From the IMG/VR virus record IMGVR_UViG_3300045747_000694, positions 42,165 to 106,164 of that record: a stretch of 64,000 bases of DNA; one strand, 5' to 3'. This stretch comes from a virus. The notes beneath the pieces were generated by a model. The model had not been told where the DNA came from and ran no database searches. It saw nothing but the letters and a program-made list of their open reading frames with translations. A program made the position numbers and the translations under genes. Shown one piece after another: positions 9,527 to 10,189 of this stretch. Position 1 is the stretch's first letter. The number at the start of each line of letters is the position of its first letter.

Positions 9527-10189
9527 ATGCTACCGACAACTGGGACCATCAGGCTGAGGGGGGCTACGAGTACCGATACGAATGCGGTCAGTGTCGAGAT
9601 CTTTGGCACGCCCACCAACCTCAACCTCACGGCAACCATCGTCCGAACGCTGTTCGCTCTGGCGAGTGGCACGATCAAGCTGACGGATGGGTACGGCCAC
9701 TGCTACTCGAACTGCGGCTGCGATGCGAACTGCGGGTGTGATGTGAACTGCACCTGCGACGCCAATGGCGGCTGTATCTGCGACCTCTGCCCGTCCCCCG
9801 ACGTGCCCCTCGAGATGGCGGATGGCTCGGAGAAGCCAGCTGGCGAGATCGTGGTCGGGGACCTGGTCACCGCGTGGGACGAGGAGAAGCGTATCCTCAG
9901 CCCTCGCCGCATCACGTACGTCAAGCGGGGCGAGAACGTCAGGATGAGTCTCCTCCTGAGCAACGGCAAGTCTGGTGAGTTCGCCGTGAACCATCGCTTC
10001 CTCACGATCAGCAACACGTGGGCGGAGCTTCGGGACCTGAAGGTGGGCGACATCCTCTCGACTGGCGTCTCAGTGCTGGGGACGATGCTGACTGGCCCAG
10101 GCCCTGTGATCTCCATGCTCGTGGATGAGCTGCACACCTACGTCACGCTCGGCGTGGTGTCCCACAACGCCAAGTGCGGTAACCTCTGA
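9527..10189 (+). CDS. Cys-rich hexapeptide-repeat protein fused to a Hint (intein-like/BIL) autoprocessing domain
   Basis: aa 59-88 CYSNCGCDANCGCDVNCTCDANGGCICDLC. Then Hint blocks: C-PSPDVPLEMADGSEKPAGEIVVGDLV (A), FAVNHRFLT (B), VISMLVDELHTYVTLGVVSHN (F/G), followed by AKCGNL. Confidence 0.8.
   Translation: MLPTTGTIRLRGATSTDTNAVSVEIFGTPTNLNLTATIVRTLFALASGTIKLTDGYGHCYSNCGCDANCGCDVNCTCDANGGCICDLCPSPDVPLEMADGSEKPAGEIVVGDLVTAWDEEKRILSPRRITYVKRGENVRMSLLLSNGKSGEFAVNHRFLTISNTWAELRDLKVGDILSTGVSVLGTMLTGPGPVISMLVDELHTYVTLGVVSHNAKCGNL
9710..9781 (+). repeat. 4 x 18-bp in-frame tandem repeat encoding N-C-G-C-D-x type hexapeptides
   Basis: aactgcggctgcgatgcg / aactgcgggtgtgatgtg / aactgcacctgcgacgcc / aatggcggctgtatctgc. 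Confidence 0.85.

Follow-up and report, generated by a model that had tools for sequence, protein, structure and literature searches.

A candidate self-excising Hint domain fused to a Cys/Asp repeat beside a radical SAM/SPASM gene in a phage tail-fibre operon

The tail-fibre operon and its Hint-fused protein

In the present study we have analysed a window of 64,000 nucleotides of viral DNA (positions 42,165 to 106,164 of the IMG/VR record IMGVR_UViG_3300045747_000694), and within it a 220-codon open reading frame (ORF) whose product consists of a small N-terminal module, a Cys/Asp repeat tract, a mini Hint domain and a tail of six residues. The ORF belongs to an operon in which a tail fibre gene is followed by the genes for a radical S-adenosylmethionine (SAM)/SPASM enzyme, a 230-residue protein (p230), the Hint protein and a 99-residue protein (p99), the genes overlapping or being spaced by 8-10 nt (Table 1). 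The window originates from a 153-kb metagenomic contig, has a G+C content of about 62-68% and carries phage genes for head decoration, a ribonucleotide reductase, a DNA ligase, an endolysin and a lytic transglycosylase-like protein. A megablast search of positions 7000-12000 against 50,697 phage records gave no match.

Table 1. Features of the tail-fibre operon, in nucleotides of the window
Feature	Coordinates	Strand	Remarks
Tail-fibre gene, 2026 aa	1625..7705	+	Collagen-like Gly-X-Y repeats, C-terminal Peptidase_S74; first gene of the operon, 4-nt overlap with the radical SAM start
Peptidase_S74 intramolecular-chaperone domain of the fibre	~7427..7588	+	Pfam match within the final 301 aa, E 3.4e-16
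Radical SAM/SPASM enzyme, 374 aa	7702..8826	+	Pfam Radical_SAM E 2.8e-9; phrog_1802 E 3.6e-30
p230, 230-aa all-alpha TPR-like protein	8826..9518	+	Kept between radical SAM and Hint genes in the window cassette type
Precursor ORF, 220 aa: N-domain, Cys/Asp repeat, Hint, 6-aa tail	9527..10189	+	
N-terminal module, aa 1-57	9527..9697	+	Conserved in alignment A1
Cys/Asp repeat tract, aa 59-87	9701..9787	+	Ends one residue ahead of the Hint nucleophile
Mini Hint domain, aa 88-214	9788..10168	+	Profile, fold model, catalytic residues
C-terminal tail AKCGNL	10169..10186	+	+1 Ala, +2 Lys, +3 Cys
p99, 99-aa protein	10197..10496	+	Conserved directly 3' of the Hint gene in the window cassette type

The N-terminal module is common to other small Hint-capped phage proteins with different middle parts, and its residues 21-56 are 53% identical over 36 residues to residues 15-49 of one of them (P0012; pairwise E 2e-7). 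The tract that follows contains nine Cys (59, 63, 65, 69, 71, 75, 77, 83 and 85) arranged in C-x-C-D-x-x hexads, with four C-x-x-D motifs at positions 63, 69, 75 and 83. An 18-bp tandem repeat (3.7 copies, 9708..9774) makes up most of its coding sequence, and the number of hexads varies from 2 to 4 among homologues. The C-x-x-D motif is common to all the Cys-rich tracts that we found in front of a Hint domain (CGCD, CSSD, CPSD, CRLD, CHLD, CTLD and CVSD). A preliminary description of this DNA, made from the letters alone, had pointed to the Cys tract ahead of Cys88, which is indeed present, while the C-x-x-D repeat and the co-conserved radical SAM/SPASM gene of the fibre operon had escaped it.

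The fibre matches PHROG tail-fibre families with E values from 1e-58 to 1e-17. The operon carries two different C-terminal modules of self-cleaving type, Peptidase_S74 on the fibre and Hint on the precursor ORF.

Fold, catalytic residues and wider clade of the Hint domain

The interval 9788-10168, which the preliminary description took for a mini Hint domain of the bacterial intein-like (BIL) kind, coincides exactly with residues 88-214, the codons of Cys88 and Asn214 being 9788-9790 and 10166-10168, respectively. The domain has 127 residues, lacks an endonuclease insert and contains Cys88 as its sole Cys. The motif strings quoted in that description are all present in the ORF, namely CPSPDVPLEMADGSEKPAGEIVVGDLV as block A, FAVNHRFLT as block B and VISMLVDELHTYVTLGVVSHN as blocks F/G, followed by AKCGNL and the stop codon. 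The catalytic residues at both ends are intact as it had stated, and the full set comprises Cys88 (block A), His156 (block B), His203 (block F) and His213-Asn214 (block G). As a single sequence the protein reaches only sub-threshold Pfam scores (Intein_splicing, E 0.0019 and 18.5 bits against a cut-off of 35.8; Hint, E 0.034 and 14.2 bits against 29.7). A word-indexed homologue search provided 7 full- or part-length homologues of the precursor ORF with 52-63% identity, and alignment A1 was made of 8 family members including the window protein. A further homologue, L008, lies on a 198-kb IMG/VR contig. Residues M97, D99, G100, N155, H156, H203, T204, Y205, S212, H213 and N214 are invariant in A1, and Cys88 is kept in all the sequences that cover its position.

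The A1 profile, compared with the sequences of the PDB, recovered solved Hint domains, with 8w20 as the best match (E 6.4e-8), followed by Tetrahymena BIL2 (6y75/6tmm, E ~7e-7) and the BIL of Clostridium thermocellum (2lwy, E 6e-4); DnaB mini-inteins (E 0.002-0.02), RecA mini-inteins (E 0.04-0.4) and Hedgehog domains (E 0.05-0.8) matched more weakly. An AlphaFold2 model also has the Hint fold, with a predicted local distance difference test (pLDDT) score of 79-96 over residues 89-215 and below 50 over residues 1-88. Foldseek gave 63 matches in the PDB at E<=1e-3, and all 50 matches listed are inteins, BILs or Hedgehog domains. BIL2 is again prominent, now at the top (E 7e-9, template modelling score 0.71 on the target, identity 20-22%), together with DnaB, RecA and gp41-1 mini-inteins, 2lwy (E 4e-7) and the Hedgehog domains 1at0/6tyy (E 1e-5 to 4e-6). 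A fold search of BFVD led to proteins of uncultured phages annotated no more specifically than 'Hint domain' or intein, and tblastn of the Hint protein against the 50,697 phage records gave only weak intein-type matches in mycobacteriophages. Profile, model and fold comparison agree with one another, and the assignment of residues 88-214 to the Hint fold is secure.

Residue 215 is Ala, and a +1 nucleophile is therefore absent, as had been noted. The conclusion drawn from it, that protein splicing is unlikely, does not hold, because type-A BIL domains share this pattern yet splice, according to the review PMC4031507. There, type-A BILs are defined by Cys1 and a C-terminal His-Asn, the lack of a +1 nucleophile and a variable host protein. 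They are described as forming the N-terminal thioester and cyclising the Asn, after which the amine of the freed C-flank attacks the thioester and ligates the flanks, with cleavage products dominating (PMC4031507, citing Dassa 2004 and Aranko 2013; also Amitai 2003). For BIL2, PMC8616854 describes resolution of the thioester by a lysine, which gives an isopeptide and conjugates the N-flank to other proteins.

The window domain shows the sequence features of a type-A BIL. With canonical class 1 inteins it shares Cys1, the block-B His and the C-terminal His-Asn, while it has Ala215 in place of the +1 Cys/Ser/Thr; a host protein with two exteins is likewise missing, the C-flank measuring 6 aa and the same clade occurring after many unrelated N-parts. 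The Hedgehog-type processing invoked in the preliminary description finds partial agreement, as the Hint domain is C-terminal and Foldseek matches it to Hedgehog folds; however, the His-Asn is invariant, and only the six residues AKCGNL follow the Hint domain, with no sterol-recognition-like extension, so that it does not qualify as a Hog domain. Nor does it qualify as PT-HINT (PF07591), which gave no match at E<=1 for the window protein, and no domain follows the Hint. Within the Hint superfamily we place the window domain, as a new member, in the BIL-A/PT-HINT part, and the likely outcome is release of the N-part, 87 residues with the Cys tract at their end, as the same description had anticipated.

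An exhaustive search with the A1 profile against 1.84 billion representative proteins retrieved 7,857 at E<=1e-3, of which 31 reach E<=1e-30. The window domain belongs to a large and mostly phage-associated clade with the signature C-P-x-P ... S-H-N-x-K, which often caps fibre-like proteins at 2-12 residues from the stop. The closest profile matches are proteins of 780-1,230 aa whose PHROGs links are to tail fibre or virion structural families, and in these relatives the Hint lies at the extreme C-terminus after a Gly-rich linker (...GGGTGGGGA followed directly by CPAPDVPL....VSHNVKPxx-stop). The tails were tallied in the best 150 of the 7,857 representatives, which hold 53 C-terminal and 118 internal Hint instances. 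Among the C-terminal ones, Cys1 is present in 50 of the 50 readable sequences and His-Asn in at least 48; the +1 residue is V, A, I, L or M in 40/53 and C, S or T in 5/53 (A, V, T or I in the close family); and the tail, 2-12 aa long with a mode of 4-5, has Lys at +2 in 42/53. Internal instances have a Lys within +1 to +3 in 98/118. A Lys at +2, or at +1 in the internal copies, is nearly universal in the clade. In the cassette type with radical SAM and p230, five of seven tails contain Cys (AKCGNL, AKCGTL, AKQCPPGA and, twice, VKNCPPGV). The C-terminal reaction appears to be under selection, because His-Asn is invariant and a short tail with a conserved Lys at +2 is retained, and this suggests that the tail may be a built-in nucleophile that resolves the thioester.

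Pfam covers this clade poorly: P0011, P0015, P0021 and P0041 have no match and three other scanned relatives only sub-threshold ones. P0002 and P0005 have precomputed PT-HINT matches, and more distant relatives score PT-HINT at 1e-42 to 1e-44. Homology of the window fibre itself to the Hint-capped fibres was considered and rejected, since BLASTP found no match between them and the window fibre carries Peptidase_S74. On long fibres the Hint occupies the position that S74 has on the window fibre, and for this reason the Hint cap may be a functional analogue of Peptidase_S74.

Some relatives deserve a separate mention. An ORF at 5140..6621 of L026/L027 combines a Hint, a Pro-rich and then Gly-rich linker and an S74-like 'KSDLRLKKNI' motif; it has no Pfam match at E<=1e-3 and, judged by its motifs, would hold both self-cleaving modules in one protein. 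Many relatives (P0016, P0017, P0020, P0023-P0027, P0030, P0034, P0055) contain 2-4 tandem Hints joined by Pro- or Arg-rich linkers (SHNKR-RRP...), in some cases with tape-measure-like C-termini, and may be polyproteins cut by serial Hint domains. The 8.7-kb contig JANXYT010000185.1 from a metagenome-assembled genome of Holophagaceae (Acidobacteriota) bears, at 1..1305 of L048, a fibre C-terminus with a Hint cap that is 57% identical in the Hint, a possible clue to a host or prophage of the fibre-cap subgroup.

The radical SAM/SPASM enzyme and its association with Cys-rich Hint proteins

The radical SAM protein of the operon contains the CX3CX2C motif (C17/C21/C24) and seven invariant C-terminal Cys (259, 277, 316, 319, 324, 327 and 354) in a SPASM-like arrangement, the combination characteristic of radical SAM/SPASM peptide maturases. 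Its best NCBIfam match is the ranthipeptide maturase PapB (E 3.3e-19, residues 10-321 aligned to 6-308 of 330), ahead of CcpM and of the CXXX-repeat maturase, and PapB is also the best family for the other three enzymes tested (L052, L069 and L071), although the scores, 69.3 bits for the window enzyme and 77-84 for the others, are far below the equivalog cut-off of 340, so that another radical SAM/SPASM reaction is possible (sactionine, cyclophane, Cys-to-formylglycine or other). According to PMC9413430 and PMC12373016, PapB joins Cys to an Asp or Glu placed C-terminal of it, with C-X3-D/E as the natural motif and C-Xn-D accepted for n = 0-6.

The association of such enzymes with Cys-rich Hint proteins was found in two gene arrangements. 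The order of the window cassette, with radical SAM, p230, Hint and p99 genes, recurs in L001-L003 and L005-L008 with 50-63% protein identity, and homologues of the fibre C-terminus stand 5' of the cassette in L005 and L008. In the other arrangement, found by a metagenome scan on AT-rich contigs (G+C ~0.38 in L052), a Hint gene with a different N-part is followed directly by a distantly related radical SAM gene (L052-54, L069, L071-72), and in L070 and L073-74 a truncated ORF 3' of the Hint gene carries the CX3CX2C motif. Here the order is an S74-type fibre, a P0012-like protein and the radical SAM gene, whose start overlaps the stop of the Hint gene, and the P0012-like protein is built of the N-module, a beta region, the tract CSSDCPSDACGC and the Hint. 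The S74 fibre 5' of the Hint protein was recognised by its motif, by eye, in L052 and by precomputed Pfam Peptidase_S74 matches in L071 and L073. P0007, a close Hint homologue whose Ig-like N-part lacks Cys, has no radical SAM gene nearby.

The association also served as a prediction for further Cys-rich members. P0022 has a radical SAM gene directly 3', P0021 has both an S74 fibre 5' and a radical SAM gene directly 3', and P0031 and P0040 have truncated 3' ORFs bearing CX3CX2C; the controls P0009 and P0041, with Gly-rich linkers, have no radical SAM gene 3'. In a table of 42 dereplicated Hint proteins with flanking DNA, where a protein counts as Cys-rich if at least 3 Cys lie in the 30 residues before Cys1, a radical SAM gene is found within 700 bp of 13 of the 15 proteins with a Cys-rich tract and of 0 of the 27 others (Fisher p 4e-9, which overstates the independence because the 13 positives represent two gene arrangements and about four types of N-part). 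In the two Cys-rich exceptions the Hint is internal and belongs to another type. An adjacent, co-conserved precursor with repeated Cys/acceptor motifs, the hallmark of a ranthipeptide-like cassette, is thus present.

The all-alpha prediction for p230 comes from a structure model based on a 3-sequence alignment and its likeness to TPR-like peptide-binding solenoids is generic only; word-indexed searches gave 1 and then 3 relatives, and the protein may be a peptide-binding adaptor or chaperone. Scans of Pfam, PHROG and NCBIfam gave no family match for p99, whose counterparts hold the same position in L001-L003, L005, L006 and L008 (39-75% identity by tblastn).

Among cultured phages, the nearest relatives of the radical SAM enzyme are in the Campylobacter CP220/CPt10/CP21 group, with 29% identity over the full length (L047: CP220 164742..165911), where the gene adjoins genes for a 1,159-aa 'endolysin' and for the baseplate. 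A QueC-like gene lies 3' of the radical SAM gene in L069 (5244..5807) and L071 (5127..5690 and 6334..6954, including in L071 a Vut_1, queuosine-precursor transporter-like, gene). The identification of the L069 and L071 enzymes as QueE was rejected, their length of 401-406 aa and best matches to radical SAM/SPASM peptide-maturase families, PapB first, speaking otherwise.

Three further ORFs of the window lie outside the cassette. A 48-aa ORF just 3' of it (10493..10639, +), with a homologue in L008, ends in a hydrophobic helix (VVGAVVAFVIIVAVVALKF) and could encode a small membrane protein. A 185-aa protein (11126..11683, -) has an N-terminal hydrophobic segment and weak lytic-transglycosylase/endolysin PHROG matches (E ~1e-4), and the C-terminal half of a 417-aa ORF (26239..27492, -) matches a PHROG transposase family (E 1.3e-19).

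Proposed mechanism, alternatives and known systems

Thus, we propose that the 220-residue protein is a fibre-associated precursor whose Cys/Asp tract would be cross-linked through thioethers by the radical SAM enzyme and whose Hint domain would then remove itself, a reading to which we give an even chance. The Hint fold with its catalytic residues, the operon, the co-occurrence and the radical SAM enzyme's class are established, and the chemistry throughout is what we infer. In this mechanism the enzyme, perhaps helped by p230, would install cross-links in the (C-x-C-D-x-x)n tract of residues 59-87, most likely Cys-to-Asp thioethers of the ranthipeptide type, leading to a disulfide-independent knot that could arise in the cytoplasm, whose reducing conditions do not allow disulfides. 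The Hint chemistry is deduced from the conservation of the catalytic residues and from what type-A BILs are known to do: an N-S shift would turn the Leu87-Cys88 bond into a thioester, and cyclisation of Asn214 would cut off AKCGNL. Resolution of the thioester by water would give an N-fragment of 8,944 Da, and attack by one of the tail's amines (alpha-amine of Ala215, or conserved Lys216) a 'spliced' product of 9,531 Da. By either route the 14-kDa Hint would excise itself, a built-in release module of single turnover that may also provide a handle for recognition, with AKCGNL as a sacrificial or ligated C-flank, and the mature peptide would be a fibre-associated component of the virion.

Several observations weigh against this proposal, apart from the low PapB scores and the limited independence of the co-occurrence table. 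Ala153 takes the place of the block-B Thr (TxxH), and the Asp that many inteins have in block F is not kept in A1, so that the rates of the Hint reactions could be low. The natural PapB motif is C-X3-D, while that of the tract is C-X2-D, and a Hint or Cys-peptide neighbour, sought beside the radical SAM genes of the CP220 group, was not found there. The putative association with the virion is drawn only from the position of the gene and from the PHROG tail and virion structural matches of the relatives.

If the Hint were processed as proposed and the tract bound metal (Zn, Cu or Fe-S, in a metallothionein-like manner) or formed a disulfide knot, the radical SAM enzyme would act elsewhere, for example on the fibre or on a small molecule. 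The C-x-C and C-x-x-x-C spacings of the tract, similar to those of metallothionein-type clusters, the Campylobacter-phage homologues that lack such a partner and the QueC-like gene behind the enzyme in L069 and L071 all fit this view. Nevertheless, the tract and the enzyme occur together in 13/15 against 0/27 cases and in two gene orders, the conserved Asp C-terminal to Cys is the acceptor arrangement of PapB, and all the enzymes tested resemble SPASM peptide maturases and none QueE; we consider this alternative decidedly unlikely. The loss of the block-B Thr and of the block-F Asp, together with the sub-threshold Pfam scores, could instead mean that the Hint is dead or very slow and kept as a structural, docking or receptor-binding knob, its conserved residues serving the folding. 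Such a view is very unlikely given that relatives with as little as about 30% identity, and more than 150 domain instances, retain Cys1, the His of blocks B and F and His-Asn, and that the domain always stands at the extreme C-terminus after flexible Gly- or Cys-rich linkers, as expected of a removable module.

The fate of the thioester offers another alternative, in which a nucleophile from outside (a lysine in the fibre or in another virion protein, a lipid or an amine of the cell envelope) would capture the thioester of the 87-aa fragment, leaving the cross-linked peptide covalently attached as in Hedgehog or BUBL processing. It is unlikely on balance, even though BIL2 is the top structural and second-best sequence match and attaches its N-flank through an isopeptide bond to lysines of other proteins (PMC8616854), the domain has the same C-terminal place as that of Hedgehog, and the Hint gene stands directly 3' of the fibre gene in several lineages. 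The likeness to BIL2 amounts to only 20-22% identity and is equally seen with ordinary mini-inteins; the invariant His-Asn and the retained x-Lys tail suggest resolution in cis; and behind the Hint there is no adaptor region, sterol-recognition-like or other, nor was a conserved acceptor identified. Finally, inteins are common in phage genes (terminase, polymerase and ribonucleotide reductase inteins appeared in the BFVD search), and the domain might be a decaying or misplaced selfish intein without phage function. A C-extein of only 6 aa, the lack of a +1 nucleophile and of a homing endonuclease, the fact that an intein-less host protein with fused flanks is not known, the conservation of domain and flank in a syntenic cassette (50-63% identity) and the capping of many unrelated N-parts by the clade leave this reading essentially excluded.

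The proposal of a cross-linked tract and a self-excising Hint may be extended further, to a degree that we hold to be distinctly unlikely. In an undescribed phage route, a C-x-x-D peptide would be stapled by the radical SAM enzyme, and the fused Hint would replace the leader or follower protease and deliver the peptide as a thioester, which would be ligated through a lysine isopeptide, as in BIL2, to the fibre or to another virion or host-surface target, yielding a covalent and reduction-proof adhesin tip; Hint-capped fibres elsewhere would proceed likewise without radical SAM.

Literature searches for natural Hint-fused precursors of peptides made by the ribosome and modified after translation (RiPPs) and for phage radical SAM/tail-fibre systems brought up nothing but papers on engineered inteins or on unrelated subjects, an outcome that does not prove novelty. 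The fusion of a radical SAM-associated Cys/Asp repeat to a putatively self-excising Hint, recurrent in phage fibre operons, appears to be undescribed, and so does the large clade in which a Hint with an x-Lys tail caps the C-terminus of fibre-like phage proteins. If the proposal is true, phages would use RiPP-type radical SAM cross-linking on fibre-associated structural proteins, a chemistry thus not limited to bacteria and secreted peptides, with the Hint as built-in release module of the modified peptide, and self-cleaving, traceless or thioester-generating tags for radical SAM-stapled peptides could be engineered from it. The Hint caps, largely missed by Pfam, would then represent a second and chemically different self-removing fibre C-terminus beside S74, and the conserved +2 Lys provides a testable handle on the resolution of thioesters by BIL-type domains.

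Among known systems, type-A BILs such as that of C. thermocellum (2lwy) are close in having Cys1, His-Asn, no Cys, Ser or Thr at +1, a mini-Hint that measures about 130 aa and lacks an endonuclease, and variable, non-housekeeping hosts. The window clade differs from them by its extreme C-terminal location, its 2-12-aa flank with +2 Lys, its C-P-x-P-[DE] start and its phage origin, and the window subgroup by the fusion to a C-x-x-D tract that co-occurs with radical SAM. BIL2, from the polyubiquitin-like BUBL1 locus of Tetrahymena thermophila (6y75, 6tmm), is the top fold match and uses a lysine amine on the thioester (PMC8616854); it is, however, eukaryotic, lies between two ubiquitin-like domains and is only ~21% identical to the window domain. 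Of the Pfam models, the one closest to the wider clade is Pretoxin-HINT (PF07591) of polymorphic toxins, but it precedes a C-terminal toxin domain thought to be released by it, whereas only 6 residues follow the window Hint. The Hedgehog Hog domain is similar as a C-terminal Hint that frees an N-fragment via a thioester, yet its sterol-recognition region and Gly-Cys-Phe junction are absent here, and Hog lacks the C-terminal Asn step. Peptidase_S74 of tail fibres and endosialidases is comparable as a C-terminal fibre module that cuts itself off, with an unrelated fold, a Ser-Lys dyad and no thioester. Finally, ranthipeptide systems (PapA/PapB of freyrasin, SCIFF/ScfB, CcpM) likewise place a precursor with repeated Cys...Asp motifs beside a radical SAM/SPASM gene, and PapA likewise has the Asp C-terminal to the Cys (PMC12373016). 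The window system departs from them in its C-X2-D motif with a second Cys inside, in its setting in a phage tail-fibre operon and in the proposed manner of release, since the ranthipeptide core is freed by a separate protease, while the core of the window protein is followed by a folded domain that would cleave itself.

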